From contig CAVXPZ010000001.1 of the NCBI GenBank assembly GCA_963763775.1, positions 1,472,001 through 1,536,000 on the forward strand: DNA of 64,000 nt. Direction: 5' to 3'. Position 1 is the stretch's first letter. Each line of letters opens with the position of its first letter. The position numbers and the translations under genes were made by a program. The notes under the pieces are model-generated. The model saw only the letters and a program-made list of their open reading frames with translations. It ran no database searches and was not told where the DNA came from. The DNA is from an uncultured Chloroflexia bacterium (GTDB taxonomy: Bacteria > Chloroflexota > Limnocylindria > Limnocylindrales > CSP1-4). This document shows, piece by piece, positions 19,376-64,000 of the stretch.

Positions 19376-20752
19376 TCAGGCGTCCGGCGCCTCGTAGGCG
19401 AGGCGGCCGTCGGCCAGCGTCAGCACGACCCGACCCGGCAGCGACATCCCGAGCAACGGCGAGTTCTTGCCGCGCGACGCCAGCGATCCGGGAAGCACGG
19501 TCCAGGGCTCGGAGCGGTCGAAGACGACCAGGTCGGCGGGTGCGCCTTCGACGAGCCCGACGGCCGAGCGCCGGCGCGTGCGGTCACCGAGGATCGCCGC
19601 CGGACCGGTGGTGAGGGCCGCGATCGCCGTCGCCAACGGCAGGCACCCCGCGTCCACGGCGGCGAGCAGGAGGCCGAGCGCCGTCTCGATGCCGCTGATC
19701 CCATTGGCCGCCAGCCCGAACTCGACGTGCTTGTCGACCTCCGTGTGCGGGGCGTGGTCCGTGGCGACCGCATCCGCGGTGCCATCCGCGAGCGGCGGCG
19801 AGGACCGCCGCCGCGTCTGCTGCCGACCGGAGCGGCGGGTTGACGCGCAGCGACGGATCGAACGGCGGCGCCACGATCCCGCCATCGGCCCACGGGTCGT
19901 CGTCCGCGTCCCAGGCATAGCGACGCCCACCGGCGATCCACGCGTCGGTCAGGGCGAGGTGGTGCGGCGTCACGTCGCAGGTGACCGGGAGACCGGCCGC
20001 CTTCGCCCGCCGCACCTGCGCCAGGGCTCCCGCGGTCGACACGTGGGTCAGGTGCAACCGGGCGCCCGGGACATCCCGGGCGACATCCGCGAGCAGCGCC
20101 AGGTCGCGGGCGACGGCCGCCTCCTCGGCCGCCGCGGGCCAGCCGCGAAGCCCGAGGACGGTCGCCACGAACCCGTCGTTCGCTTCCGCGCCCACCGTCA
20201 GCGACCCGTCCTCCGGGTGGTCCACGATCGGCAGCCCCAGCGCGCCGGCGTAGGCGAGCGCCGAACGCAGGATCGCCGCCGAGGCCACCGGCGACCCGTC
20301 GTCGCTGAACCCGACGACACCCGCGTCCGCGAGCTCGCCGAGCGCGGCGAGCGTCTCGCCGCGTCGTCCGACGGTCACCGCGCCATGCACGAGGAGCTCG
20401 ACCGGGGAGCCCGACGCGGCGCCCGCGGCCCGTACCGCGGCCAGCACCCCGGGCTCGTCGATCGCCGGGGTCGTGTTCGGCATCGCGCATACGGTCGTGA
20501 ACCCGCCGTGGGCGGCCGCAGCCAGCCCCGTCGCCACCGTCTCGGCGTCCTCGTTGCCGGGCTCGCGCAGGTGCGCGTGCAGGTCGATGAAGCCAGGGGC
20601 GACGACGACGCCGTTCGCGTCGACATCGTCGGCTTCCGCGCCGGACAGCCAGGTGACCGCCTCGAGGATCCCGCCGCGGACGACGATCTCGCCCGGCCCC
20701 TCGCGAGCGGCCGCCGGGTCGACCAGCCAGGCGCGGCTGATCTCGAGGTCGA

Positions 20753-20756
<4 letters not shown>
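19376..20756 (-). CDS. pyrC: Dihydroorotase (frameshift ~19795)
   Basis: PGFIDLHAHLREPG, MPNT, FSDDG, HVST, DVTPHHL, VNPPLR, ATDHAPH. Confidence 0.92.
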
Positions 20757-22426
<1,670 letters not shown>

Positions 22427-33210: not shown

Positions 33211-34112
33211 ATGTCGATCGTCGACGCGGACGATGACGTCGCCGAGCTCGCCGCCGCCCTTGGCTCGACCCCGGTATCGGCCACCCCCGTCGGATGGGGG
33301 GATGCACGATCGACCCTTCGAGTCGTGCTCTCGGACGGTCGGGCGTACGCCGCGCGGCGACTGCCCGGACCGGACGCACCGGTGGCCCGGCGGATCGCAT
33401 CGCGACATGGCCCGGTTCGCCGACGCCGGTCTGCCGACCGTCCGGCCGGTGCTGACGTCCACGGCTGAGGCCACGTGGCTGTCGGTCCCATGGGTCGACG
33501 GAACGACGGGTGCGGCCTGGCTGGGCGAGCCAGGACGAGCGCGCCACCTCGCCGATCGCATGGGCCGGCTCATCGGCCGCTTCGCCCGGATCGATCCCGC
33601 CGACGTCGGGTCGAGTCGACGCCCCGGACGACGATCGGAGCCTCACCGACGGGATCGACGCGCTGGTGGCGACCCTCGACCTCACGCCGACGGTCCGACG
33701 CGCCGTCGAGACGGCCACCGTCCTCGAGCCATCGGGGCCTCCGGCGGCCGTCGGGCGTGATCCATGGCGACTTCGCGCCGATCAACGTCATCGTCGGGGC
33801 CGATGGCGAGATCGCGGCGCTGCTCGACTTCGAGCACGCTCGCGCGGCATCACCGGTCGTGGACGTCGCCTGGTGGGGCTGGGTCGTCCGCCATCATCAT
33901 CCCGAGGCTTGGGCGGCCGCCTGGCCGACGTTCCGGGCGGCCGCCGGCGTCGAGCCGGGCGTGACGGATGCGGACCTCCATGCCCTCGCCCTGCTCGAGC
34001 TCGCGCGGCGTGTCGATGTCGGCCGCGGACGCCGAGGCGCGTCGTCGCTGGCATGGAGCGCCTGACGGACGCGGCGACCTGGGCGATGCCCGAGGTCGAT
34101 CAGCCCACGTAG
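33211..34112 (+). CDS. Aminoglycoside phosphotransferase/kinase-like protein, multiply frameshifted
   Basis: IHGDFAPINV and LLDFE motifs; pieces in three frames. Confidence 0.7.
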
Positions 34113-35387
34113 GCGATCGTCTGCGGGCCCTGCGGCAGGACGGCGATCCGCGCCGCCGGGTCGGCGGCGAGCAGGCGCTCCACGGCGGCATCGATGTCGG
34201 GGATCGGTTCGAGGTGCGCGGCCCGGACCTCGGCGTCGGACAGGCCGTCGCATCGCAGCAGGACGTCGCGCCTTCGATCTGGACGCGGGCCTGGATCTGC
34301 ACCTGCCATTGGTCCGGGATGGTCACCGGCGAGGCCGCGATCCGCTCGAGCAGGTCGGCCGGCGACCGTCCTTCGTGGAGCAGCCGCCCGTACGACCCGT
34401 GCTCGGGAAGCCCGTCCCGGCACTCCGCGGCGCAGATGATGGTCCCGCCCGGCCGGACGATCTCGGCCGCCGCGGACATGCCCTTCACCGCCTGATAGAG
34501 GTTCTGGTCGAGCGGGTAGCCGCTGTTGGTCGTGATGACGATGTCGAACGGCGAGGCGACCGCGCGCATCGCCTCGCGGCGTGCCTCGGCGCAGGCCGCG
34601 GCATGCATCGCGAGGATCTCACCCGCGAAGGCGCGCGTGATGCGCTGCTCGTCGTCGAGGAGCACGTCGACCGCGAAGTCGACGCCGCGTGGCCGCGGCG
34701 ATCGCCCGGACGGCATCGTGGACCGGGTTCCCTTCGATGACCCCCCAGGTCGCCCGCGGGTCGCCGATCCGGCGGGCGTTGTGCAGCTCGAGCGTCGTGT
34801 CGAGCCCGGCGAGGCCAGGCGCGACCATCTTCGGTCCGCCGCTGAACCCGGCGAAGAAGTGCGGCTCGACGAACCCGGTCGTGATCCGCACGTCCGCCTC
34901 GACCCAATCGACGGTCCAGGTGCACCGGCACGTCGCCGACCATGCCCATGTCCACCAGGTTCGCCCGGTCGCGCGCGTCGTGGTCGACCACGCGCCACAT
35001 GCCGAGGACCTCATCGCCGAGCATCACCCGACGCTCCTCATCCGACGACGCCCGATGCGTCCCGGTGGCGATCAGCACGACCACGTCCTCGGGCCGGATG
35101 ACACCGTCGAGGACCTCCATCAAGGCACCCAGCATCAGGGCGCGCGGCTGCGGCCTCGTCACGTCGCAGACGGAGATCGCGACACGCTGGCCGGCACGGA
35201 CGATGTCGCGAAGCCGCGGACCGGCCACCGGACCGTCGATGGCGGCCCGGAGCGTCGCGAGCGGGTCGGGTGCCGCGGTCCGGGGTCGCGGGGCGATGAC
35301 GGTGGTCTGGGCGGCCGGCAGGCGGACGGTCAGACCGGTCGACCCATAGGCGAGGGCCACGTCCACCGTGCCGCCGCTCGCCGACAC
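34100..35387 (-). CDS. larA: LarA-family nickel-pincer racemase/epimerase, frameshifted
   Basis: CDVTRP, IATGTHR, VEPHFFAGFSGGPK, GYPLDQNLYQAVKG, AECRDG, DQWQVQ, LPQGP. Confidence 0.85.
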
Positions 35388-50613: not shown

Positions 50614-50709
50614 CCACGCTCCCGATCGTGCCACCGAGCCTAGCACCGGGCTTCACGCGCCCGCGATCCGCCACATTGAACCGATCGCGGCCTGACGCTG
50701 GACTCAGGT

Positions 50710-50761
50710 CCTCCCGAGCGGGAGTAACTCAGTCGGCAGAGTGTCACCTTCCCAAGCCGAC
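50710..50761 (+). repeat. tRNA-Gly(CCC) 5' fragment, copy 1 (att-like)
   Basis: CCTCCCGAGCGGGAGTAACTCAGTCGGCAGAGTGTCACCTTCCCAAGCCGAC; 2 mismatches to 55191..55242. Confidence 0.9.
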
Positions 50762-50779
50762 ACCCTTTGGCTTGTGACG

Positions 50780-50845
50780 GGCGACGCCGAAGTGGACTGG
50801 AAGCTGCTCGAGCATGTGGGCATGCTGCTGCACGCGAGTCGCTAG
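50780..50845 (+). pseudogene. 3'-terminal remnant of a cNMP-binding protein gene
   Basis: GDAEVDWKLLEHVGMLLHASR* vs GDAEVAWKLLEHVGVLLHARR* of 14422..14829. Confidence 0.75.
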
Positions 50846-52902
50846 GGCTTCGACTCGCTGATGACCTTGGCGTCGACCGTGGCGTTGACCTTGTCCTGAC
50901 TCGCCCCCACGGCGACCGTCTGCTTCACCGTCTTCTTACCGCCCTCCGGCTTGAACGTGAGGTCGGCGAGGGAACCATCCGGCTGGAAACCGCCCAGCAA
51001 CGCGATCATGAAGGGGCCGGTCATGCCGTCCGGCCCGAGCTGCAGGAATTGACCGAGGCTGATGCCAAGGCAGCTCCCTGAGTCCAGGACCTTCGACGAC
51101 TTGTCGTAGTTGACCTTCCAGTCACGCGGCACGGTCTCGTCGAGGACGGGATTCGACTGACCCTGCCGCCCGATCTCGGCGATCGGCCGCTTGGCGGTCA
51201 GGACGACGGTGCCCTGCTCCTTGAACGGTGTCGGACACGGGACATCGCCGTTGATCCGCATCGTGCCCTTGACCGGTCCTGACCCACGGTAGGTCCCATC
51301 GGGCTGGAGCTCCAGGACGACCTTGGGGATCGAGATGGTCGTCGTGTACGACACACCGAGTGCACTGACCGTGAGCGTCCCATTGATCCCCACCTCGAGC
51401 TTCTTGGCGCCGGTGTGGAAGATCAGCGTGAGTTTCGCGATCCCCTGCCTCGACGTGGCGGTGAGCCGCACGTAGGCATCCTTGCCGTCCTGGTCCGGCG
51501 CGACGTAGCTCAGGCTCCCGGGTGGTTTCTCGACGGTCTTGGGGTCGAGCGACTCCTTGCCATCCAGCTCGGCCACGATCTTGACCGGCGGCACGGTCTG
51601 GCCGTACCGATGGTCGAGCCCGACATCGAACTGGGTCGTGCTGCCCTTGTCGACCTCCTCGGTGTGGGTCGGCTTGGCGTTGTTGGCGAAGGCACTCATC
51701 GGGATGTAGCTCGGCGCGGTCACGATCATGCAGCGGGTATCGCGCCAGACTTCCTGCGCGTGCCGATACGCGGGATTCATCGTCACGAAGTCGTAGCCGG
51801 CGCTGCCGGTGATCTGCCCGATCATCGCGGGGGTCACGTCACCGGACCCCTTGACGTCGGTCTTGGCGCCGCTCCAGCCCCCGACGGTCCCCGAGCCCTC
51901 GGCGATCGGGGCCGGGACGCCGTCGGAGATGCCCGTCGTTGCGACGGTGTACTCGCCGTCGCTGGTCGTCTCGTCGCCGTCCGTGGTCGTGGACCGGTGG
52001 AACTTCTCGTGGTGCGTATAGGCCTGGGTGATGGCTCCGAGCGTCGCGGTATCGTCCGTCGTGCCTTCGAACGTGCTCGATTGGTCGCTCGAGCCCGTCG
52101 CGTTCGATCCGCTGCCGCCGGGCCCGCCCGACGTCGATGCCGTGATCTGGATGGACGTGTCGAGCGAGGCTGGCACGAGCCCGGCCGCGTTCGGGCAGGC
52201 ATCGAGCTGACCGAAGAGTCGCGTCTTGTTGCTGTCGGTGAGGACCGTCTGGCCGGTCGCGGTGTCGGTCACGGTCTCGTCGATATCGGTCGTCATCTCC
52301 AGCTTGCCGACGGAGCCGGACGTCGAGTAGGTGACGACGGTGTGGATCGTCGCCGTGCTGCTTCGCCCGCCATCGGTCTGGGTGAACGACTTCGTTCCGA
52401 GGTCGTTGACATGGGGGTTGTCGGCCGGGTACCCGATGATCTCGACCGCGCCGGCCATGAGCGGCCCGAACTGGGTACGGGACAGGTCGGGTGGGGACTT
52501 GAATGCCGCCTCGATGATCGCCGACTTCGCATCGGGCAACGTTCGCCTCGAGATCGCCCCGGTCTCCGTGTCGATCAGGAGGGCGAGGATCGCATCGGCA
52601 TCAGGCCCGAGCGACTCGCGGATCCCCATCGCCTCCAGGAGCGCGAGATGGTCGTTCACCGGATCGAGCGGCTGCCCCTCACGAGAGGCTGCGTCCGCGA
52701 CGACCGCGTCCAGGGTCGCCTGGAGCGAGCCATCGGCTGGCGGCGCGATCGGAACGGCCGGCGAACTCACGGACCCGCTGGCTACTGGACTCGAGGCGAC
52801 GATCGTGGTCGTCGCCGCCGGGCTGGGCGTGGCGACGTTCGGGCTCCCGCACGCGCTGAGGATGACCGTGACCGTCATCAGCAGGCCGAGCAGCCGCAAC
52901 AT
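50842..52902 (-). CDS. Large Thr/Ser/Gly-rich lipoprotein of unknown function
   Basis: Lipobox ILSAC after a hydrophobic signal; ~686 uninterrupted codons. Confidence 0.7.
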   Translation of the reverse strand: MLRLLGLLMTVTVILSACGSPNVATPSPAATTTIVASSPVASGSVSSPAVPIAPPADGSLQATLDAVVADAASREGQPLDPVNDHLALLEAMGIRESLGPDADAILALLIDTETGAISRRTLPDAKSAIIEAAFKSPPDLSRTQFGPLMAGAVEIIGYPADNPHVNDLGTKSFTQTDGGRSSTATIHTVVTYSTSGSVGKLEMTTDIDETVTDTATGQTVLTDSNKTRLFGQLDACPNAAGLVPASLDTSIQITASTSGGPGGSGSNATGSSDQSSTFEGTTDDTATLGAITQAYTHHEKFHRSTTTDGDETTSDGEYTVATTGISDGVPAPIAEGSGTVGGWSGAKTDVKGSGDVTPAMIGQITGSAGYDFVTMNPAYRHAQEVWRDTRCMIVTAPSYIPMSAFANNAKPTHTEEVDKGSTTQFDVGLDHRYGQTVPPVKIVAELDGKESLDPKTVEKPPGSLSYVAPDQDGKDAYVRLTATSRQGIAKLTLIFHTGAKKLEVGINGTLTVSALGVSYTTTISIPKVVLELQPDGTYRGSGPVKGTMRINGDVPCPTPFKEQGTVVLTAKRPIAEIGRQGQSNPVLDETVPRDWKVNYDKSSKVLDSGSCLGISLGQFLQLGPDGMTGPFMIALLGGFQPDGSLADLTFKPEGGKKTVKQTVAVGASQDKVNATVDAKVISESKP

Positions 52903-52982
52903 CGTCGGAGTATGCCCCTTCAGCCGGGCTTGCCGGCGGCTCCAGACGGCGTACACGCTCCGCGCTAGACGGAGGCCTCCGA

Positions 52983-53053
52983 GCGGGAGTACTCAGTCGG
53001 CCGGACCAGCTTCCCACGCCGAATGTCGCGGGTTCGATCCGACTCATGCTCCA
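52983..53053 (+). pseudogene. Degenerate full-length tRNA-Gly(CCC) copy (copy 2)
   Basis: GCGGGAGTACTCAGTCGG...CAGCTTCCCACGCCGAATGTCGCGGGTTCGATCCGACTCATGCTCCA; broken stems. Confidence 0.8.
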
Positions 53054-53153
53054 CTCCTGGTTCCTCGACACAACCCGGTTCGATTCACCGACGGGAAATC
53101 GTACTCTGGGACTTGACTGCGGCCAGGCATCCGGTGAGGCCTCGCCTGAGCCG

Positions 53154-54548
53154 TCAGCGCCCAGTCGGCTGCCAGTAGAAGGTGCGGCCAGGATCACCTG
53201 GCTCGGACATCGTGGTGACCCGGCCGGGCGCGTCGATGGCCGCCAGCGCCTCTGTCAGGTCAGCCAGGGGCTGGGCATCGTGCGGCGTGACGTCCAGCGC
53301 GACGCTCCAGAACCGGGCGTCGTCGCCCGAGCCGCCGCCGACACGAAGATGCGTGTCATCGAGCCAATCGACGCAGCAAAGCCGGCGATCGGTCGCGTCG
53401 GATCCGGTCTCGATGCGCTCGACGTGGCCAGACGCGAGATCGGCGACGTAGACGGTCGTCTCCGGCGACGTATCCGTGACCCACCGTTGCCAGGCGAAGG
53501 CGATCCGCGTGCCGTCGGGTGACCAGCGCGGCCCCAGGACCGAAACGTCCGCATCGAGCGCGACCTTGGCGGGATCCGTGCCATCGGCGTTCACGATCCA
53601 GAGTTCGCGGGTGTCGTTGCTCTCGTCCAGGACGGTATACGCGATCCGGCTCCCATCCGGTGACCAGGCGGGCAATTCCAGCGCCAGCTGCCGATCGCGT
53701 GTCTGATCCTTCACGAGCGTCTTGCCCAGGTCAAGCTGCTGGCGGGTCCGCAGGTCGAGCGTGCCCAGCGTGTGGCAATAGGTTCCGGCCGTCTCGGCGA
53801 TGGCGGCGGCCAGGACCACCTCGACCCCGCCGATGACACCGACCGTCGATCGGGCCGAGCAGTGCACTGTTCGGACGAAGACCACGTGCTCGCCGTCCCC
53901 GGCGACGTCGAACGCGGTCCACTGCTCCGGTTCAGGGACCACGACACCGGTGTCGACGAAGTCGCCGATCGTCTCGCCGACCTCGGCGACGAGGATGTGG
54001 CCGGAATTCGCGACCAGCCGCGTACCATCCGGGGACCACGCGACATCCAGGGCACGATCGGCTTGGAGCTCGTGCGCGCCGGTCCCGTCCGCACGCATCG
54101 CCCACGTGCTCGGCAGCCTCGACACCAGCGATCCCCCGCTCGAGGGCACCGATCCCCGACTGCGGGCAAAGGCGACCCAGGGAGCTGGACCGACAGCGTC
54201 GGGCGAGGCCGCCGGCGTGGAGGAGGGCCGTGCCGTGGACGGGGCCGCCGATGGCGTCGCCGAGCCTTGGGGCAGAGCTGCCGGCGCGACCGGCGGCATG
54301 CGGACCAAGCCGGATCCCACGGCCACGGTCCCGACCAGCGCGGCGACCACGAGTACGACGACGGCCGTCAGCATGAGCCGCCGGTCGCCCGTGCCGCGTG
54401 ATCGCACGGGGATCCCCAGCTGGACGGCGGTCAGGCGTTCCGTGTGCCCGAGCGCAGCCGCCCGCTGCTCGATCACGGTCCAGAGCTCCGGCATCGGTGC
54501 TCGGTCGAGCGTGGCGAAGCGGTCACGGAGGTCAGGCATCGTCGTCAC
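53154..54548 (-). CDS. Membrane-anchored TolB/PD40-repeat protein (probable anti-sigma/sensor)
   Basis: TM helix; repeated WSPDG..(I/L)A motifs; overlaps the sigma gene. Confidence 0.75.
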   Translation of the reverse strand: MTTMPDLRDRFATLDRAPMPELWTVIEQRAAALGHTERLTAVQLGIPVRSRGTGDRRLMLTAVVVLVVAALVGTVAVGSGLVRMPPVAPAALPQGSATPSAAPSTARPSSTPAASPDAVGPAPWVAFARSRGSVPSSGGSLVSRLPSTWAMRADGTGAHELQADRALDVAWSPDGTRLVANSGHILVAEVGETIGDFVDTGVVVPEPEQWTAFDVAGDGEHVVFVRTVHCSARSTVGVIGGVEVVLAAAIAETAGTYCHTLGTLDLRTRQQLDLGKTLVKDQTRDRQLALELPAWSPDGSRIAYTVLDESNDTRELWIVNADGTDPAKVALDADVSVLGPRWSPDGTRIAFAWQRWVTDTSPETTVYVADLASGHVERIETGSDATDRRLCCVDWLDDTHLRVGGGSGDDARFWSVALDVTPHDAQPLADLTEALAAIDAPGRVTTMSEPGDPGRTFYWQPTGR

Positions 54549-55017
54549 CCAGGAGTTGGCGGAGCCGGCGCCGACCGCGACTAAGGTTGGCCCGGACGGC
54601 CAGTCCGTTCGATCCCAGTCGCTGCGCGATCTGACTGATCGGCAGGTCGGCGTAGTAGAAGAGCACGACCGCGGCGCGCTGACTCTCGGGGAGTCGGCGC
54701 AGGGCCTCGAGGAGGTCAGGATCGGCGTAGCGGTCCACGTGGTCGGTGGTCGGGGTGGACACCTGGCCGGCCATCCGGCCGGCCTTCAGGGCGCCCGAGG
54801 CGATCCGGAACGCCGCCCGCCACGTCCAGGCCTGCGGGTCGCGTACCGCCGCTCCCCGACGCAGGACTTGCGCATAGGCCTCCGCGACGGCATCGCTGGC
54901 GATCTCCGGATCGGCGGCGAAGGCGTAGACCGCGTGCCAAAGCCGATCGGCGTCCGAGCGGTAGATCGCCTCGACCGTCTGCTCTGCTTCGATGACCGGG
55001 ACCGCGCTTTCCATCAT
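54532..55017 (-). CDS. ECF sigma-70 factor
   Basis: ASDAVAEAY, DPQAW, LPESQRAAVVLFYYADL, RGRRRL. Confidence 0.87.
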   Translation of the reverse strand: MMESAVPVIEAEQTVEAIYRSDADRLWHAVYAFAADPEIASDAVAEAYAQVLRRGAAVRDPQAWTWRAAFRIASGALKAGRMAGQVSTPTTDHVDRYADPDLLEALRRLPESQRAAVVLFYYADLPISQIAQRLGSNGLAVRANLSRGRRRLRQLLGDDDA

Positions 55018-55190
55018 CCGCATAGGGACCGTTTCTGGTCAAAAGGTGACATCCGAGGGAGCCGGGCTGAGGGTCGACGCGCCGGTGCCCCGGGTCGTGG
55101 TGACCGCGGGCGGCCCGGAGGCTAGATCGTTGCTCCGGGCACATCACGCCTCGTCCGGCTGACCTTGGCTCGCATCAACTAGAATGTCTG

Positions 55191-55246
55191 CCTCCCGAGC
55201 GGGAGTAACTCAGTTGGCAGAGTGTCAGCTTCCCAAGCCGACTGTC
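55191..55246 (+). repeat. tRNA-Gly(CCC) 5' fragment, copy 3 (att-like), preceded by a TAGAAT -10 box
   Basis: 55191..55238 identical to 62801..62848 (48 bp); TAGAAT at 55180..55185. Confidence 0.92.
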
Positions 55247-55328
55247 TGGCCCCCTGCCGACCTGGCCCAGCCGAGCCCTCCCGCCTCGTGGTTTGAGAGT
55301 TGTGAGAGTCCCCTGAGCCGGTGGACGA

Positions 55329-55360
55329 AGAGAACTAGTTGCGCATGCAACCAGTTCTCT
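55329..55360. other. 14-bp inverted repeat (terminator or protein-binding site)
   Basis: AGAGAACTAGTTGC-GCAT-GCAACCAGTTCTCT, one mismatch. Confidence 0.55.
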
Positions 55361-55489
55361 AGCCTCGCGAGCAACGGCGCGGCAAGCTCTCCGATTGTTC
55401 GGAAGTGCTCTGTGCTGGGCACCCACGCCTCCATCAGGCAACGCGGCACAACGGCAGTTCACCACCAACCTGGGGCAGTGGACGTCGGC

Positions 55490-56266
55490 CTACGAGTGCG
55501 ACTCCTCTTCCGGCTCCTCGTACCACCTGACACGGTCCCCGATCCTCGCCCGGGCCTTCCAGGCAAATGACTTTGGAGCGGAGCGAAGGCGGTCGACGAG
55601 CTCCTGGGCCTGGCTGGCAGCGTCATATCGGGGTGGCTGGCTGAAGGTCAGTTCGACGGGTACGGGTTCCTCTGCGACGAACCGGACAAGCGTCTCGAGG
55701 GTCCCGGTCACGGTCCGCCACCACCCCCAGTCGCCACGTGTCAGGCGAACGATCGGCGCCGTCGTGATGCTGTGGCCATCCTGATTCGAGTCGGAGTCTG
55801 CGAGTGGCAATCCCGAAAGTAGGACAGTCGCATCGATCAGGTCCTTGCGGGTGACCTTCACCACTTGCAGCTTGCTGAGCAGCAAGTCCGTGGGCGAGAT
55901 CGTCGGGCCCGGTCCGGCGAGCGACGACCTGAGGTCGAGGGTGTGGCACATCTCGAGTCGGTCGACGATCACGTCCACCGGCCGACCACGCTCAGGATCG
56001 ACGGCGTACAGCTGCTTGTGACCGGCGGCGGCGTTGTACCGGCGATCGGGCACGTACCCTTCGGCCTCCAGCATCTCCAGGACGCGTCGCCGGCCCGCCG
56101 ATGTGGTAGCCATGTCGAGGTCGCGTCCTGGCCGCTCGCCACGACCATGCCACCCTGGCACGAGGAGCTCGACCGCTGCTCCGCCCAGCACCTGCAGTGG
56201 CACGCCACGGTCAGAGGCGATCGAAACGAGCCGCAACGCCTCGGCGCGCAGGCTAGCCTCCGTCAT
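55490..56266 (-). CDS. Nucleotidyltransferase-fold protein of unknown function
   Basis: LGGAAV...RDLDM (GG..DxD) NTase-like signature, VDV, LLLSKLQ, KDLID. Confidence 0.65.
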   Translation of the reverse strand: MTEASLRAEALRLVSIASDRGVPLQVLGGAAVELLVPGWHGRGERPGRDLDMATTSAGRRRVLEMLEAEGYVPDRRYNAAAGHKQLYAVDPERGRPVDVIVDRLEMCHTLDLRSSLAGPGPTISPTDLLLSKLQVVKVTRKDLIDATVLLSGLPLADSDSNQDGHSITTAPIVRLTRGDWGWWRTVTGTLETLVRFVAEEPVPVELTFSQPPRYDAASQAQELVDRLRSAPKSFAWKARARIGDRVRWYEEPEEESHS

Positions 56267-57285
56267 CGGGTCTCCGGGGCGATGCCGGACGATTCCCGCA
56301 CGATCAGGCGGAGCTCGATCGACTCCGTGCGAGGCTCGCCACCCTCGATGAGATCGATCGCCATGGCGACGGCATCGGCGCCGATCCGCGCCGCCGGGAT
56401 CTCGACCGTCGTCAACGCCGGCTCGAGCATGCGCGCAAGCTCGATGTCGTCGAAGCCGACGATCGAGACATCGCGCCCGACCTTCAGGCCGCGCTCGACG
56501 GCCGCCTTGTACGCGCCGGCGGCGAGAAGGTCGTCATCACAGAGGATCGCCGTCGGCCGGTGTTCGATGTCGAGGAGCTGGCCGGCGGCACGACTCGACG
56601 ACTCGATGTCGAACCGGCTGGTGACCTGAGCCTGCGGGTCCAGCGGCAGTCCCGCTTCGTCCATCGCGGCGAGGTAGGCGCTGCGCCGTGCGTGGAAGGT
56701 CTCCTGGGCGAAGTTGGCACGCAGGTGGGCGATGTGGCGATGGCCGAGGCTCACGAGGTGCTCCATCGCCCGATGGGCACCGCCGTAGATGTCGAGCTCG
56801 ATGCTCGCGGCGTGCGAAGCATGCGCTTCCACCAGCACCACGTTCGCGCCCAGCCGCTGGACGTCCCGACTCGGCACCGGGTCGGCCGCGTAGACGATGC
56901 AGCCGTCGACGGCGCGAGCGGACATGATGTTCGCGAGCCAGTTGATCCAGTTCGGATCATCGCCGATGTCCAGCAGCATGACGGCGTTGCCGCGGGCTCG
57001 AGCGGCGCGCTCTGCCCCCAGCAGCACCGATGAGAAGAATGGGTTCGCGACATTGGGGACGACGAGAGCGATCGCGTGGGTACGCCCGAGACGCAGGTTG
57101 CGCGCGGTCGCATTGGGCTGGTAGCCGAGCTCCTGCGCGATGCGCAGCACCGAGTCGCGCTGTTCGTCCGAGATTCGCCCGTCCGACTTCCCTGTCATGA
57201 CGAGCGAGACGGCCGCCTGGGAGACGCCCGCCGCGCGCGCGACGTCTCTCCCGGTCACTCGACGCTCCGCCTTCCTGGATTGCAT
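56263..57285 (-). CDS. LacI-family transcriptional regulator
   Basis: DVARAAGVSQAAVSLV, LGYQPN, NPFF, GHRHIA, VSIVGFDD, LTTV. Confidence 0.93.
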   Translation of the reverse strand: MQSRKAERRVTGRDVARAAGVSQAAVSLVMTGKSDGRISDEQRDSVLRIAQELGYQPNATARNLRLGRTHAIALVVPNVANPFFSSVLLGAERAARARGNAVMLLDIGDDPNWINWLANIMSARAVDGCIVYAADPVPSRDVQRLGANVVLVEAHASHAASIELDIYGGAHRAMEHLVSLGHRHIAHLRANFAQETFHARRSAYLAAMDEAGLPLDPQAQVTSRFDIESSSRAAGQLLDIEHRPTAILCDDDLLAAGAYKAAVERGLKVGRDVSIVGFDDIELARMLEPALTTVEIPAARIGADAVAMAIDLIEGGEPRTESIELRLIVRESSGIAPETR

Positions 57286-57314
57286 CGGACCAGAGGGTAT
57301 CAAGCGCCCGACCG

Positions 57315-57767
57315 TCAGTCGCCACGACCGAGCGATGCCCCGCCGAACCCGAACGGCAGCCAGTCCGGGATGGCGCCCCAACGGACGCGATCCGTGGTCA
57401 GCGACGCGTTGATCACGAGCACCTCCGGACCGAACTCGGCCAGCAGCTGCCGACAGACCCCGCAGCATGACGCCGGATCCTCATCACGAGTCACCGTCAC
57501 GCACGCCCGGATGCCATGGGCTCCGCCGGACAGGGCCGCTCCGATCGCTGCTCGCTCAGCGCACAACGTCGCGGCGTAGGCCGCCAATTCGATGTTGCAG
57601 CCGCCGGTGATCGCCCCGCGATCGTCGAGCACCGCGGCACCCACTGGATAGCGCGAATACGGCGCCCGCGCATGGCCTGCTGACTCGACCGCCACCGCGA
57701 GCAGCTCCCCGATCGAGGGGAGCTGGCTCGCGAGGGTCGGGTCGGATCTGAACCCCTCGTGGATCAT
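57315..57767 (-). CDS. cdd: Cytidine deaminase
   Basis: APYSRYPVGAA, GCNIE, TLCAER, CCGVCRQ. Confidence 0.85.
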   Translation of the reverse strand: MIHEGFRSDPTLASQLPSIGELLAVAVESAGHARAPYSRYPVGAAVLDDRGAITGGCNIELAAYAATLCAERAAIGAALSGGAHGIRACVTVTRDEDPASCCGVCRQLLAEFGPEVLVINASLTTDRVRWGAIPDWLPFGFGGASLGRGD

Positions 57768-57771
57768 CTCG

Positions 57772-59404
57772 TCAGTCCGGCGGGATCTCGGCGTAGGCGA
57801 GGTCGATGTCGTACCCCTGGCGACGCCGTAGCGCCCGGCTGACGAAGTAGATGGCGATCCCGATCGGGAACAACGCGATGCTGCCCCAGAACATCCCCGG
57901 GTTCACGTCGATGTTCACGCCGGAGCCAGGGTCGCGCACCATGTTCACGACGAGCAACAGGGCGCCGATCGCACCGAGCACGCCGACGATCGTGAGGACC
58001 GGCACTTTCCCGATGAACCAGCCGACCGGCGACATCTCGTACAGGCTTCGGAACTTGTACGGGATGATCGCGGCCGCCAGACACGCCGAGCCCGAGGGCG
58101 CTGACCTGGCCGAAGGCACCGACCACGACCGTGAAGTAGCTCGTGTACGCCCAGGCCCAGGCGACCACGGCTGCAACGACCGTCACCAGGATCACCGCGT
58201 TGACGGGCGAGTTCGAACGCTCGCTGACCTTGGACAGGCTGTCCGGCACGACTCGGTCCATGGACCAGGCGAAGATGCACCGCGTCATGAGCAGGAGCGA
58301 CATCGCGACGGTCGGGAACAGCCAGGACGCGAAGCCGATGATGATCATCGAACCCGACGATCGGGTTGCCGCTGGCGATGGCCGCCGTCTGCATGAACGT
58401 CGGGGCGCCGGCCAGCCCGGTGGCGTCGGCGCTGGCGGCTGCCAGCGGCCCCGAGGAACGACTGGCCGAGGCGCGTTCACCGCCAGGAGGGCCACCACCA
58501 TCGCACCGACGAAGGCGATCGTGGCCGTGACCGGACCAGCCAGCAGCTGCGGGTCCGGGCAGACCTCACCTCGCCCGCGAAGTACGCGGAGCCCAGGTAG
58601 AACGGCATCGAGAACGCGGTCCAGGACACCGCCAGGATGGTGATCCCAAGATCGAACGGCGCAGCGGGTGCGTAGCCATTGGTGGCGGCGGACTGCGATG
58701 ACCGCTGCGGACGCGTGCTGCACGCCCGTCGCGGTCGCGACGTAGGCGTCGAATGCAGCGATCGTGTTGGCTGGGGTCGAGGTGATGAGCACGACCGCGG
58801 TGACGGCCAGCCCGATGAGGCTCACGACCATCGTGTACTTGAACACCTTCAGGACGGTCCTGATGTTGCCCAAGATGAACAAGAGCGCGAACCCGAAGAC
58901 GAACAGTTCACCGACGACGAAGATGGCGAACGGTGATGCGAGATCCGTCGACGCCTGCACCAGGCCGGGATTGTTCAGTTCGACCCCGAGGAACTGGGCC
59001 AGCGGCGACAGACCCCAGATGCAGAAGAAGTAGCCGGTCGACGTCAGGAACACCACGTTGAACAAGACGAACACGAAGTTCGCCGCGAAGCCGATCGATG
59101 GATGGATCGTGCGGCTGATGAACACGTAGTCGCCGCCGCTGCGCTTCATGACGGAGCTGGCGATCGCATACGTCCCGACGATCGGTATGGCGAGGACGAA
59201 GCCGATCGCCATCGTGAGGAAGATGTTCGCCCCTGGGTAGAACGCCAGAACGAGCCCGAGTATGAAGGCGAGCATGATCGGGAACGTCGCGACGTACATG
59301 TTGACGAACGACGCGTCCGTTGCCGAGGCTGCTCGCACCAGCCCTGACGACTTGCGGGCGAATACCGGGACGGCTCCCGTGCCAGACCCTACGCTGCTAT
59401 CCAC
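57772..59404 (-). CDS. APC-family permease, frameshifted
   Basis: FARKSSGLVR, RSGGDYVFISR, RCIFAWSMDRVVP, C-terminal IDLAYAEIPPD; many TMs across frames. Confidence 0.85.
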
Positions 59405-59431
59405 ATCCTCCTCCTCTCCTTCTCGACCGAC

Positions 59432-60358
59432 TCATGCCACGACCAACTGGCACTGCTCCACTTTCCCGGGCCTGACCTGGATGACCGCGCCGAGCAGCGA
59501 TCCCTGGTCGTACTCGCTCCCGGGGTTCACCACGGTAGATCCTCCGACCTTCACGACCCCGCGACTCTCGTGGATGTGCCCGTGAAGGCTGAGCAGTGGC
59601 TGGTACTGACGGAGGCCTTCGGCCACCGCGGTCGACCCGACCGGGATGAGATCCGGGGCGCCGGCGACGAGCTCGACTCTGAGGTCGTCCCCGAGCCGGG
59701 GCGCCACGTCGAGCCCTGACCCGTACGGAGGGACGTGGATATTCCAGATCGTCTGCGCCCGGTCGCCCGTCTCGAGGGCCTCCATGAGGAGACGCAGCTC
59801 AGACTCAGGCTTCTCGCGGTTCGTATGCCAAGGTGTTGGATTGCTCCATCCCACGCTGCCGAGCCAGAAACCGTCGATCTCGGTGATCCCGTCGGGCGGG
59901 CTGATCATCGGGCCCTCATTGAAGATGGGCGCGAGCTCATCGAAGTCGTCGTTACCGAGGCCCATGACGAGGCGGGTCGATGCCCCGATCCGGTCGCGGG
60001 CGAGCTGCACCCAGTCCCACGCTCGGCTGACGATCAGGTCGCGCAGCGTGTCCTCGACAAGCTCATGGGATGCTTGGAGCTGCGCCACGAACTCGCGATC
60101 GGTGCGGACGGAGTATGCCCCGTGGTCCGCGAGGCGGCCTTCGAGGGTGACGAGCTCCTCCTCCGTCGTCGCCTCGAAGTTGGCGCCCTGGAATGAGGCG
60201 CGCCAAGCGCTGGACTCGCGCACGATCGGCACGAGGTGCTTGCCCGCAGCATCGCCGCCCATGATCAGCCAGTCCGCCTTGTAGAACGCGGCCGCGTTCA
60301 GGAACTTCCTGAAGCAGCGGTTCGAGCCATGCAGGTCGCTGGCGAAGAAGATCCGCAT
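59432..60358 (-). CDS. Calcineurin-like metallophosphoesterase (Icc-related)
   Basis: DLHG, GGD, GNDD, HVPP, HGHIHE, NPGS. Confidence 0.88.
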   Translation of the reverse strand: MRIFFASDLHGSNRCFRKFLNAAAFYKADWLIMGGDAAGKHLVPIVRESSAWRASFQGANFEATTEEELVTLEGRLADHGAYSVRTDREFVAQLQASHELVEDTLRDLIVSRAWDWVQLARDRIGASTRLVMGLGNDDFDELAPIFNEGPMISPPDGITEIDGFWLGSVGWSNPTPWHTNREKPESELRLLMEALETGDRAQTIWNIHVPPYGSGLDVAPRLGDDLRVELVAGAPDLIPVGSTAVAEGLRQYQPLLSLHGHIHESRGVVKVGGSTVVNPGSEYDQGSLLGAVIQVRPGKVEQCQLVVA

Positions 60359-60394
60359 CGAACGCTCTGACGGGGGGTTGACTGGATACAGAGG

Positions 60395-60422
60395 AAGTTA
60401 TACGATTGACGTCCGATGTCAA
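60395..60422 (-). promoter_or_regulatory. Sigma70-type promoter with overlapping LacI-like operator candidate
   Basis: - strand TTGACA(60422-60417)-N16-TAACTT(60400-60395); imperfect CG-centred palindrome GTTATACGATTGAC at 60397..60410. Confidence 0.55.
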
Positions 60423-61205
60423 TCCCTGATCTGGATCGCTCGCTCAGCCGCAACGCGGCAGGTCATCGACGGCCTGTTCGCTGCGGCGGCGACCGGGTTA
60501 CCGCGGACGTGCTCGAGTGGTGGCACGTGGACGGCTATCTCGACGACGTGACGATCGCTCGCCGGTTCGCCGGCCACGACCAGCTCTACCCATACCTGGA
60601 TGGTACTACCGCGCCTGCCGGACCTCGACTTCACGCCGGCGCGAATTATCGTCAGCGGCGACCTGGCCTCGGTCGAGTGGGCCGAGCGCTGCCATCTGCG
60701 AGCGCGTTCGACGGCGTGGCGGCGGACGGGCGAGCTGCGTTTCCGGGCATGGACCTGTTCGGCATCCGCGACGGCAAGGTCGCCTGGGAGTCGAGCTGGT
60801 ACGGCGACGCGTGGATGCGGCGCGACTCGAGGAACCCACGAGGCCCGGATGCGCCGCCGCCGCCGCTCCCACGGCGCGGATCCTGGGAAGAGCCTTCGCG
60901 TCCCGACGAGCGGGGCGAGGCATCGAGCGCGGCGACGCGTGACGTCATCGACCGACTGTTCGCGGCCGAAACCGGGGACACCGCACGAGTGCTCGAGCTG
61001 GTGGGCGAACGACGGCGTTCTCGACGACGTGACGCTTGCGATGCGTGTGCGCGGACACGATGAGTTACGCGTGTACCTCGACGAGTACTACGCCGGCTTG
61101 CCGACCTCGACTTCACCCCCCGGCGCATCCTCGTGGACGGCCCATGGGCCTCGTGAGTGGGCCGAGCGTTGCCACCTAGACGGTCCGTTCTTCGGCGCGT
61201 GCTGA
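60416..61205 (+). pseudogene. Degraded tandem SnoaL/NTF2-like domain gene
   Basis: Duplicated segments (VIDRLFAA..LDDVT..GHD..YLD..Y..LPD..EWAERCHL) scattered over frames. Confidence 0.6.
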
Positions 61206-61892
61206 TGGGCGCGAACTACGGCTCCAGGCCGTGGACACGTTCGAGGTCCGTGACGGAAGGTGGTGTGGAGTCGGCTGGTATGGCGACGGCTGTTGATCGA
61301 TCGGCTCCGAAGTGCGGACCGATCCGAGCTGCCAGCGGAGTTGCGTTCGGAGTGTCGTGGGATGAGGAGCGTGGGCATGACAGAGCGCATCGAGTGGGTC
61401 TCGCGAACTGCCGATTGCTCGGGGTCGATCGCGACGAGTTCCAATGACACGCAGCGTTCGCAGGTAGGACGATCGGACGGCATCACCTAGAGCCAAGACC
61501 GTGGCGCTCCTCTTGCGTTGAAGGCGCGCGCACGTTCGTCCCAGCTTCCTCGCCCGCGAGAGCGCGGGCGCGATCGGAAGGGCTTGGCCCAGGCGGTCGG
61601 CGACCGCCTGCTCGAAGTCCTCGATCGGCATCTGCCACAGCGCTGATGCGTACGCGAAGAGCTGTCCGACGACCGCGCGACGTATCTCGGGGTTCGCGCG
61701 GAGCTTGCACTCGACGAGGAGCACCGAACCGTCGAGGCCGATGCCGACCAGGTCGGCCGGGCCCGCGCCCGTCTGGACCTGGCGCGCGACCACCATCGGA
61801 CCCGCTGACGCGCCAGGGAGGAGGTCAGGACTCGCGGCGAGCAGCTGTTCGAGCGCTTCCTCGTTGGGATACGCGCTGACCTCCGGGCGCAT
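61176..61892 (-). pseudogene. PD-(D/E)XK NucS-like nuclease domain, C-terminally degraded
   Basis: NEEALEQLL, GPADLVG..LLVECKL, AVVGQLFAYA; the 3' half loses coding character. Confidence 0.6.
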
Positions 61893-61940
61893 GCCAGGCT
61901 CCCTCACCGGCGCGGCGCATCAACAGCATCCCGTCCGACC

Positions 61941-62800
61941 CTACTCGCTGTCGCCGTGCGCGCGGCGCATCAGGTCGACGAGCAGCTCCTTGCTCTTGGC
62001 GAGATCGGCCTTCGTGAGCCGGATCCGGTACTGGCCGTAGCGCGCGCTGTACTCGAGCAGCTCGATGCCCGCGGTCTCGAGCTGCGCCTGCGTCTCCTCC
62101 GAACGCTCGACCCGGAGTTCCGCGACGACCCAGTCCTTGCGCGGCCTGAAGGTCATGAAGTTGTTCGGGTGGCCACCCTTCGCGAGGCCGATGTAGAACT
62201 TGTTGTACTTGAGCTCGAGCCCCGGATCGATCTCGCGGAGCCAGCCGAGCAGCTCGTCGATCATGCGCGAGCGTCTGCTTCGTTGCCGCGCTTCTCCCAG
62301 TAGGCGCGGTCGGTGACCTCGGCGATCTCCTCGTCCTCGTCGACGAGGCCGCGTTGCACCTCGTCGATCACCTTGCGTGAACACGAGCGAGACGTTCTCG
62401 CCGAGCCTGGATGGCGCTCAGCTGGATCGCGACGAGCGGGATCGCACCGTTGAACAGGCGCGATCACGTTCAGGAACCGGCTCGTGATGTCCTCGGCGAC
62501 GATGACGGCGGCGTGGTCGTACTGCGGGTAGCGCTTGCGCTCGATGTCCCAGTACTCGATGGTGCGGATGATGTGCGCCTCGTCGGTCTTGCCGAGCTGG
62601 ATCTCGACCTCGTAGCGGTGGTTCGTCTCGGCGTCCTGGAGGAGGAGGTCGAGACGACCGGCCGGGGCTGGATCCGCTCGCGGTCCTTGAGGACGAGGTC
62701 GCCGAAGCCCGAGGAGCGACGGGTCCTCGCCGATCCGATCCTGGAGCCAGCGCTCGTCGAGTTCGGGGTGGGTCTTGAGCCAGATGCGCTCGGGCTTGGC
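61941..62800 (-). pseudogene. NucS/DUF91-like endonuclease with DUF5655-like C-terminus; no start codon, frameshifted
   Basis: ERWLQDRI, GRLDLLL, YEVEIQLG, HIIRTIEYWD, AVIVAE; C-terminal LKYNKFYIGL; 5' end abuts the tRNA leader. Confidence 0.7.
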
Positions 62801-62808
62801 CCTCCCGA

Positions 62809-62884
62809 GCGGGAGTAACTCAGTTGGCAGAGTGTCAGCTTCCCAAGCTGAATGTCGCGGGTTCGAACCCCGTCTCCCGCTCCA
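62809..62884 (+). tRNA. tRNA-Gly (anticodon CCC)
   Basis: GCGGGAG/CTCCCGC acceptor stem, TCAGC-TTCCCAA-GCTGA anticodon arm, GGTTCGAACCC T-arm, encoded CCA; 76 nt. Confidence 0.97.
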
Positions 62885-63026
62885 CCTTGCTCTTGTGCTC
62901 AGCGCGGCACCCGACCGGGCGTCCCCTCTGAACTCACTCGTCCCTCGGGCTGGCGATGACGCCCGTGAGGCGATGCTCGCACCGACGATGGGCTGACCGG
63001 ATCGCTCGGCCAGCCGAGAGGGTTCC

Positions 63027-64000
63027 ATGACCGAGAGCGTCACGCCCGGCCCGCACGGACCGCTCGCCAGCGTCCTGGAGATCCGCCGGGGTCCCGATGA
63101 TGCGCACACCGGTGGCCTCGAGCACCGGGAGGCCCTGATCTACACGCTCGGCAAGGCCGCCGAGCTCGAGCACCTCGTGATGCTCCAGTACCTGTTCGCG
63201 GCCTTCTCGCTCAAGCAGAAGGTCGACGAAGGACTCACCACCGAGACGCTTGCCGCCGTTCAGCGCTGGCGCGCGACCCTCCTGGGGATCAGCGCACAGG
63301 AGATGCTCCATCTCGCGCTCGTCCAGAACCTGCTGACGGCGGTCGGCGCTGCCCCGCGTTTCGCCCGCCCGAACTTCCCGATGCCCGCCTACGCCTACCC
63401 GGCCGGTGTCCGGATCGAGCTGGTGCCGTTCGGCGAGGCCGCCCTCCGTCATTTCGCCTTCCTCGAGCGCCCGGACGGGATGGACGTCGAGGATGCCGAG
63501 GGGTTCGAGGCCATCGCGCAGGCCGTGGCCCTCCCGCACGAGGCGCACGACGCGATCGTCCCCCATCTCCTCGAGTTCGACACCATCGGCCAGCTCTACC
63601 GCTCCATCCAGGCAGGCCTGGCGTACCTGAACGAGCGGCTCGGGCCGGAGCGCCTGTTCATCGGGCCACCGGCCGCCCAGGCCACCGAAGCGCATTTCGG
63701 TTGGCCGGAGCTCGTTGCCGTCACCGACCTCCCCTCCGCACAGCGAGCCATCGACACGATCGTCGAGCAAGGCGAGGGCGCCCGTGGCGAGTGGCGCGAC
63801 GCCCATTTCGGGCGCCTCCTCGGCATCCTCGACGAGTACCTCGAGCTCAAGCAGGCGGATCCGACCTTCGAGCCGGCCCGACCGGTCGTCGCCGCCAACG
63901 TCCGGCCGCAGCCGAGCGGGGTCGTGGTGCCGTTGATCACCGATCCGGGCACGACGCGCGCGATGGACTTGCTCAACGTCGTCTACGAAGTCCTGCTCCA
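63027..64000 (+). CDS. Ferritin-like domain protein (VioB-like ferritin family), runs off window
   Basis: Manual translation: AAELEHLVMLQYLFAAFSLK, QEMLHLALVQNLL, FLERP, TIGQLY, IVEQGEG, HFGR. Confidence 0.8.
   Translation, partial: MTESVTPGPHGPLASVLEIRRGPDDAHTGGLEHREALIYTLGKAAELEHLVMLQYLFAAFSLKQKVDEGLTTETLAAVQRWRATLLGISAQEMLHLALVQNLLTAVGAAPRFARPNFPMPAYAYPAGVRIELVPFGEAALRHFAFLERPDGMDVEDAEGFEAIAQAVALPHEAHDAIVPHLLEFDTIGQLYRSIQAGLAYLNERLGPERLFIGPPAAQATEAHFGWPELVAVTDLPSAQRAIDTIVEQGEGARGEWRDAHFGRLLGILDEYLELKQADPTFEPARPVVAANVRPQPSGVVVPLITDPGTTRAMDLLNVVYEVLL

Follow-up and report, generated by a model that had tools for sequence, protein, structure and literature searches.

A tRNA-Gly(CCC) gene and the recombinase-free segments bounded by its upstream copies in an uncultured Chloroflexia bacterium

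The DNA analysed here, which we call the window, is a stretch of 64,000 nucleotides from an uncultured Chloroflexia bacterium (assembly GCA_963763775.1, contig CAVXPZ010000001.1, positions 1,472,001 to 1,536,000). Close to its right-hand end lies a single tRNA-Gly(CCC) gene, placed by ARAGORN at 62809-62884 on the + strand and scoring 67.6 bits with Rfam. Upstream of it stand three partial or decayed copies of the same gene, and the four copies (c1 to c4, the last being the intact gene) bound three segments of DNA, A to C (Table 1). The repeated unit is a block of 48 bp, composed of the 8-nt leader CCTCCCGA and positions 1-40 of the tRNA. By sensitive BLAST the block of c3 (55191-55238) is identical to that of the intact gene at all 48 positions and the block of c1 at 46 of the 48; a 25-mer taken from it gave three matches at up to three mismatches, compared with none in all 100 shuffles. 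Copy c2 is a decayed full-length tRNA (E 1e-8 with a tRNA profile hidden Markov model, HMM) and is not called as a tRNA by ARAGORN or Rfam. Copy c3 does reach the Rfam threshold, the tRNA model scoring 31.0 bits over 55199-55285 with 33 nt in place of 18 model positions. No further tRNA copy was found in the 64 kb by sensitive BLAST or with the tRNA profile HMM. Successive copies are spaced 2266, 2215 and 7610 bp apart. In c1 and c3 the homology ends at tRNA positions 43 and 48, just beyond the anticodon loop (positions 32-38), as judged with the tRNA-HMM.

Table 1. Features of the array in the window, with the conserved arm found in related loci (L numbers; see text)
Feature	Position	Strand	Basis
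Displaced native tRNA promoter: -35 TTGAAC (50676-50681), 17-nt spacer, -10 TGGACT (50699-50704)	50676-50704	+	Layout in relatives
c1: leader and tRNA-Gly(CCC) 5' half, attL-type junction	50710-50757	+	46/48 vs c4; tRNA-HMM 1-43
Segment A, 2218 bp: one gene (50842-52902), 686-aa protein	50758-52975	-	GC3 0.89
c2: decayed full-length pseudo-tRNA-Gly(CCC)	52976-53053	+	tRNA-HMM 1-76, 35.8 bits vs 90.3 for c4
Segment B, 2137 bp: PD40 beta-propeller and ECF-type sigma genes	53054-55190	-	Pfam
c3: -10 box, 48-bp block and non-tRNA arm ending in acceptor-like CTCCCGCC	55180-55285	+	48/48 vs c4; tRNA-HMM 1-48
Segment C, 7562 bp	55239-62800	-	Pfam
c4: leader (62801-62808) and intact tRNA-Gly(CCC) (62809-62884)	62801-62884	+	ARAGORN, Rfam
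Ferritin-like gene, conserved right-hand neighbour, running off the window end	63027-64000	+	PF12902, 3e-41
Arm directly before 3' halves	L001 4521-4592, L004 260-328, L005 3566-3638, L016 8264-8335, L030 3028-3097, L063 8967-9038		
Arm without recognisable tRNA half	L063 16369-16419, L015 9495-9565, L004 4021-4076, L010 4523-4567		HMM

The cargo of the three segments is carried nearly entirely on the - strand, the sole exception among the open reading frames (ORFs) supported by Pfam or by GC content at third codon positions (GC3) being a weak SnoaL-like ORF at 60600-61205 (+). The single protein of segment A has no Pfam family; its N-terminus, MLRLLGLLMTVTVILSAC followed by G, was taken by eye as a lipobox, and on this reading the product would be a lipoprotein. 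Segment B holds a PD40 beta-propeller gene (53154-54548, -; PF07676 at 3.8e-12) and an ECF-type sigma-70 region-4 gene (54532-55023, -; PF08281 at 6.4e-12). Segment C encodes a nucleotidyltransferase, a LacI regulator, a cytidine deaminase, a permease-like protein, a metallophosphoesterase, two ORFs of unknown family and a DUF5655 protein. Weak PADLOC matches to candidate single-gene defence models were obtained for 59432-60358 (PDC-S10, 5e-8) and 61176-61907 (PDC-S11, 4.5e-10), and the DUF5655 family likewise matches PDC-S18 and PDC-S11 weakly; the three adjoining tRNA-proximal genes of this segment (59432-62797) may, on these matches, form a small defence islet. GC content is 0.62-0.74 inside the interval and 0.69-0.75 immediately to its left. 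A megablast search with the 12 kb of cargo DNA returned one 70-nt LacI match from plasmids and no match from phages, so that the cargo is like nothing known from either.

We compared the locus with 79 related loci (labelled L001 and so on), which were retrieved with the ferritin-like gene to the right of the tRNA as anchor and are 58-89% identical. Nearly all are soil metagenome-assembled genomes titled Chloroflexia, Chloroflexota or Ca. Limnocylindria/-ales, and the window's own genome is not included. The window belongs to a soil Ca. Limnocylindria genome and not to an actinomycete, for which its GC content might be mistaken. A census with the tRNA profile found tRNA-Gly(CCC) intact and full length in 18 of these loci and in the window; the gene is 95-100% identical across the lineage, and c4 is 100% identical to the tRNAs of L007, L019, L037 and L039. 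Fourteen 3' fragments (E up to 0.03) lie downstream of the gene or are orphaned, and 12 of them start at tRNA positions 26-32. There are four 5' fragments, two of them in the window and the others in L013 and in L050, and their ends fall at positions 40-48. In the window and 13 related loci, then, the fragment ends bracket the 7-nt anticodon loop. The genes around the tRNA are mostly singletons, and a search of all 79 loci for orthologues of the window's left flank or cargo recovered nothing but LacI paralogues at 29-34%. The sister loci L011 and L013 are instructive. Positions 435-8078 of L013 are 92.8% identical to positions 1-7646 of L011, and the match stops at the loop; L013 continues with an insert of 961 bp (one SRPBCC gene) and then an intact tRNA, in L011 the intact tRNA comes first, followed by an insert of 1402 bp (a DsbA-like gene) and a decayed 3' half orthologous to that of L013. 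As judged from this alignment, the two loci appear to derive from one ancestral arrangement, with an upstream insert gained in L013 and a downstream insert in L011, both at the loop. The same tRNA gene is a lineage-wide hotspot in both directions.

Certain of the 3' halves in the relatives are preceded directly by a conserved arm of about 75 nt, of consensus CGACACC...GCTCGCC...CACGCTC..ACGCTCACGAG.TCAGGA, which includes a hairpin of variable sequence and the direct repeat ACGCTCRYG. We considered the arm as a decayed tRNA promoter with its 5' half and rejected this, in-register identity being 31.5%, compared with a shuffle mean of 25.9% (maximum 34.2%) and 22-30% in shifted registers. An HMM of the arm had no match in the window. 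Comparison of the five 5'-type segments, the three of the window included, at both their left and their right ends revealed no common arm beyond the tRNA block. L016 and L063 share flanks that are 95.8% and 88.9% identical and an arm that is 87.7% identical, and their cargo is unrelated; the methyltransferase segment that occupies 8424-9187 in L016 is displaced by about 6.5 kb in L063 (15622-16385).

Among the 144 ORFs of the window (18, 37, 45 and 44 ORFs), Pfam revealed no family of integrases, transposases or replication proteins. The same search was applied to 272 ORFs of the related loci and covered the 22 tRNA-bearing loci fully; the other 57 were reached through cluster representatives and a less sensitive phmmer screen only. 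No recombinase emerged from it in ten loci with tRNA halves, where 135 ORFs of 110 aa or more around the copies were taken without filtering, among 112 further large ORFs of the 22 tRNA-bearing loci, or among 25 representatives of recurrent gene clusters. The cargo in the ten loci consists of methyltransferases, cyclases, an RHH-PIN pair, dehydrogenases, peptidases and a DDE transposase fragment (L040). The integrases of lambda, P4, L5 and Bxb1 were run with phmmer against 12,857 six-frame fragments of the 79 loci and the window, and the best match (E 0.13) lay inside the ferritin-like gene. A phage or plasmid attP carrying the 5' half was also sought and rejected, all 22 phage matches to a 56-nt query being phage tRNA-Gly genes, 80-90% identical; with the full-length query, the phage and plasmid matches among those listed were all whole tRNA genes. 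Records of 18 Gordonia and five Mycobacterium phages match the tRNA query (62790-62890) and may represent classical 3'-half attP sites of actinophages.

A generic scan for sigma-70 promoters and terminators found nothing at the four copies, and the promoter form of the lineage was therefore derived from the relatives. A TANNNT box begins 17-21 nt ahead of the mature 5' end in 14 of the 18 intact genes that could be assessed, with a TTGnnC element 17 nt further upstream where this can be read, which gives the layout GTTGnGC-N17-GCTAGACT-N5-7-CTCCCGA. The promoter ahead of c1 (TTGAAC-17-TgGACT-caggtCC) is nearest to that of L019 (TTGCGC-17-TAGACT-cagggCC), with G at the second base of the -10 box in place of the key A. 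As the native tRNA promoter of the lineage is retained upstream of it, c1 is the original 5' half in displaced position. A decayed -10 box, TAGACG (52966-52971), precedes c2, and TAGAAT (55180-55185) precedes c3; a -10 box is also present at the intact gene of L050, and the 5' fragment of L013 keeps the promoter seen at the intact gene of L011. In contrast, the roughly 900 nt upstream of c4 (61900-62810) contain no TTGNNN-N16-18-TANNNT, TGnTANNNT or TAGRMT, and the functional copy of L013 has no -10 box. Intact tRNA-Gly(CCC) genes without a -10 box were also seen in L002 (8670) and L005 (1052), with no 5' fragment upstream in the available DNA, which for L005 is 1 kb. At the junction of segment C with c4 (62800/62801), 3-6 codons are missing from the start of the DUF5655 gene (62797 down to 61941, -): full-length relatives of 288-290 aa start M(ASL)KYAKPERIWLK, the window copy starts AKPERIWLK, and the codon beyond that start is already built from the tRNA leader. 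A single deletion beside the rebuilt tRNA would explain both losses at this one point, that of the gene's first codons and promoter and that of the tRNA's promoter, and it may also have taken an integration module. An earlier note on this DNA had proposed that the attP of the incoming DNA supplies the promoter together with the 5' half. This agrees with the -10 boxes at c2, c3 and the intact gene of L050, but c4 and the functional copy of L013 are promoterless and the box at c1 is native to the chromosome, so the proposal holds for some events only. The note's coordinates, spacings, hexamers (TGGACT, TAGACG and TAGAAT) and account of the strand bias are all correct, and the absence it reported of integrase, transposase and replication genes is borne out by the Pfam search. 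Its suggestion of recombination at the anticodon loop with duplication of the 5' half upstream fits the breaks in c1 and c3, and its suggestion of a hotspot of variable content fits the relatives, none of which shares cargo or left flank with the window and two of which, L011 and L013, differ by single small inserts.

Williams reportedly recognised the anticodon loop as a sublocation of integration in 2002. The closest precedents for the array are the 5'-fragment islands of the Islander catalogue (Hudson et al. 2015), whose Table 1 counts 3760 islands with a 3' fragment and 159 with a 5' fragment (of 3,919, about 4%); 2083 of the Islander islands are anticodon-centred. The earlier note was right that the usual polarity of tRNA islands is 3', but the 5' polarity that it took as unprecedented is, by these figures, rare yet catalogued. 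As far as the published description goes, such islands resemble the array in having an intact tRNA with a direct cognate 5' fragment upstream, an anticodon-centred crossover and tandem arrangement. In the window, c1 and c3 are co-oriented 5' fragments upstream of an intact tRNA gene, their crossovers fall at one of the sublocations that Islander recognises (anticodon loop, T-loop, 3' junction), and all three inner segment lengths (Table 1) are within its 2-200 kb range. Islander, however, requires an integrase, one for each tandem member, whereas the window array has none in any of its three segments, and for this reason the pipeline as described would discard it. The segments are flanked by att-type sites and carry no integration or transfer genes, as cis-mobilisable elements (CIMEs) do. 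Tandem islands of this kind are described in the same phylum, at ssrA of Dehalococcoides (McMurdie et al. 2011), where 16 islands have an integration module beside attL and 15 of 31 lack one and were read as CIMEs or fixed islands. That account shares with ours the direct repeats of tDNA fragments, a short conserved motif beside the repeat and members without a module. It differs in that the target is the T-loop of a transfer-messenger RNA, the polarity is 3' only and 16 islands have a CcrB-like serine recombinase; in our case the anticodon loop of tRNA-Gly(CCC) is targeted, both polarities occur and none of 15 segments carries a recombinase. The tycheposon islands of Prochlorococcus (Hackl et al., preprint 2020), as outlined there, are alike in that successive tRNA integration displaces older elements and leaves partial tRNAs and degenerate remnants. 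Their hallmarks are a tyrosine recombinase, replication genes and fragmented integrases, none of which was seen in the window array; Pfam families for a tycheposon-type tyrosine recombinase with replication or packaging genes were absent from the window and the loci alike.

The comparison with integrons drawn in the earlier note is not supported. As in integrons, small gene units accumulate at a fixed site and mostly in one orientation. The site in the window, however, has no adjacent intI, no attC-type ends and no evident common promoter: neither intI nor any tyrosine recombinase was found in the 64 kb or within 10 kb of the site in relatives, no attC-type inverted repeats were found, and the ends of the five 5'-type segments share only the tRNA block. 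The - strand bias is present, but segments B and C are multi-gene and bring their own regulators, a sigma factor and a LacI protein. As to the putative trans-acting recombinase of the earlier note, no recombinase-bearing element sharing this att was detected in the 79 related loci or the phage collection. The array is an uncommon orientation of a well-known process and not a new kind of system; 5'-fragment islands, tandem arrays and recombinase-free members have each been catalogued individually in the sources cited above. Our literature searches, as far as they reached, returned nothing on Limnocylindria together with islands, integrases or tRNA.

We consider it rather probable that the array arose by serial site-specific insertion at the anticodon loop, in the rare upstream polarity, and that it is now fixed or CIME-like. 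DNA circles bearing the leader and the 5' half of tRNA-Gly(CCC) would have recombined conservatively and site-specifically at the chromosomal anticodon loop, at least two times and possibly as composites. At each insertion the 5' half brought in would join the 3' half already present to restore an intact tRNA, and the older 5' half would be displaced to the left. Under this scheme c1 would be the original 5' half on its native promoter, c2 and c3 earlier junctions, and c4 the current gene. As the breakpoints are confined to the loop, in both polarities and in many species, the enzyme would be a site-specific recombinase with the anticodon stem-loop as its core site. A circle with leader, 5' half and loop would insert upstream and one with loop and 3' half downstream, so that one enzyme could do both. 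The full length of c2 suggests an entire tRNA-like sequence in the att of segment B, or else the arrival of A, c2 and B as a composite. A decayed c2 beside a perfect c3 is as expected of junctions that differ in age or origin; c2 is more decayed than c1, and the order of events cannot be fixed for that reason. The window does not encode the recombinase, and in their present state the three segments are immobile by themselves. Most probably they are what is left of elements that carried a recombinase, now fixed, or CIME-like passengers of such elements.

That the array is instead an artefact of misassembly at a repeat, or a tandem tRNA-Gly family that decayed in place, is hardly credible, even though the assembly looks error-prone. 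Three genes of the window are each split over two overlapping ORFs, a dihydroorotase-type amidohydrolase (pyrC, 19379-22097), an APH-family kinase (33233-34062) and lactate racemase (larA, 33853-35387). Such splitting of housekeeping genes is most simply explained by indel errors of long-read assembly, and pseudogene calls in the window are therefore unsafe. Copy c2, decayed yet full length, would also suit a local duplication. A repeat of 48 bp, however, is too short for misjoining long reads, assemblies made independently in different projects show the same anatomy (L013, L050 and many 3'-type loci), and decay in place cannot leave 48 bases perfect and all similarity abruptly lost beyond them. 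Foreign DNA carrying the conserved tRNA might also have entered with no site-specific enzyme, by homologous recombination of Campbell type or the homology-facilitated kind. The near-identity of the tRNA across the lineage would offer such DNA 40-76 bp of homology, and a single crossover with a circle bearing a partial tRNA yields the same direct repeats. Crossovers would then be expected anywhere in the shared stretch, whereas 16 of the 18 fragments have their break no more than a few bases from the 7-nt loop; the exact half tRNA on the incoming DNA would be left unexplained, and we judge this route highly improbable.

Several points weigh against insertion by elements that were later stripped and fixed. 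No relative shares the left flank, and the empty site of the window locus is therefore not reconstructable. Frameshifts, those in the DUF5655 gene included, are no guide to decay, given that the window's housekeeping genes show splits as well. Pure decay must moreover account for a clean sweep, with no recombinase vestige in any of the 15 segments that have a tRNA copy at both ends (961-14,989 bp, median 2.3 kb). According to a 2026 preprint, an integrase lies within 2 kb of 92% of att-delimited islands, 6% have no vestige, and integrative elements below 4 kb are almost absent. The conserved arm precedes 6-7 of the 11 aligned 3' halves, beside five different cargoes, and four more copies of it stand alone, a pattern more like that of a cassette family. 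It is possible, if on balance doubtful, that the segments never had a recombinase and are small cassettes with a tRNA-like att, shuffled by a dedicated recombinase elsewhere in the genome on an integron-like platform. Beyond the clean sweep and the arm, this would accommodate the finding that 10 of the 15 segments are shorter than 3.1 kb, with one to three genes taking up their length, the unrelated cargo between common flanks and arm in L016 and L063, and the different places of the methyltransferase segment in these two loci. Homologous exchange between related arrays, however, could equally replace the cargo held between fixed arms. The window and the 79 loci yielded no candidate recombinase, the five 5'-type segments have no common arm, and segment C ends inside a truncated gene and not at a tidy site. 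The truncated end and the heterogeneity of the 5'-type ends speak for remnants, as does survivorship, since elements that keep a recombinase can excise and vanish while stripped ones stay. A bolder form of capture in trans, which we think unlikely, would have Ca. Limnocylindria running a gene-capture system with the anticodon stem-loop of tRNA-Gly(CCC) as acceptor, in which recombinase-free 5'-type cassettes enter upstream and 3'-type cassettes, with the arm of about 75 nt, downstream; the cassettes would be exchanged between species, and the system would be functionally an integron with a tRNA gene as its attI.

The part worth following is the lineage-wide, two-sided and recombinase-free pattern. 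One tRNA gene serves as a two-sided entry point for accessory genes in an abundant uncultured class of soil bacteria, and the genes that enter include regulators, a putative lipoprotein, nucleotide-salvage genes and candidate defence genes. Recombinase-free units of less than 4 kb escape island finders that require an integrase. If the units are moved in trans, they would belong to a gene-capture system of new design; if they are remnants, they would provide a clean record of tRNA-anchored islands built and then frozen, including a rebuilt tRNA without a promoter.

Several minor observations concern the surroundings of the tRNA. In L001 (17965-18015), L015 (15511-15555) and L030 (9108-9134), a 3' half of tRNA-Gly lies just after a block of zf-UBP, ferritin-like, STAND-LuxR ATPase and ferredoxin-cyclase genes, and this anchoring ferritin-like block may itself be an old recombinase-free island. 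A sugar-kinase/aldolase block stands to the right of the tRNA in L015 and to its left in L016, L063, L011 and L013; the order in L015 suggests a rearrangement between att-type sites. Partial matches to the tRNA profile (positions 7/8-63/72) occur on the opposite strand in L008 (9412-9467), L017 (15607-15672), L018 (9504-9562) and L025 (12208-12265), all on the - strand, with no intact copy nearby and a best E of 6e-6. The remainder of the window is housekeeping DNA, for example pyrimidine synthesis, heme A/O synthases and sugar catabolism. A 94-nt tRNA-Ala(GGC) called by ARAGORN at 14035-14128 (-) lies inside a PLP-dependent (pyridoxal phosphate) decarboxylase gene (13135-14418) and is probably a false positive. 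The DUF5655-bearing family of about 290 aa, with DUF5655 at the C-terminus, has no NCBIfam name, and its N-terminal motifs are, we presume from their appearance, PD-(D/E)XK-like. At least 8000 database proteins share a 67-aa core of this family at 90-97% identity; their sources include Chloroflexi, Pyrinomonadaceae and Niabella, and such conservation across phyla is unusual.

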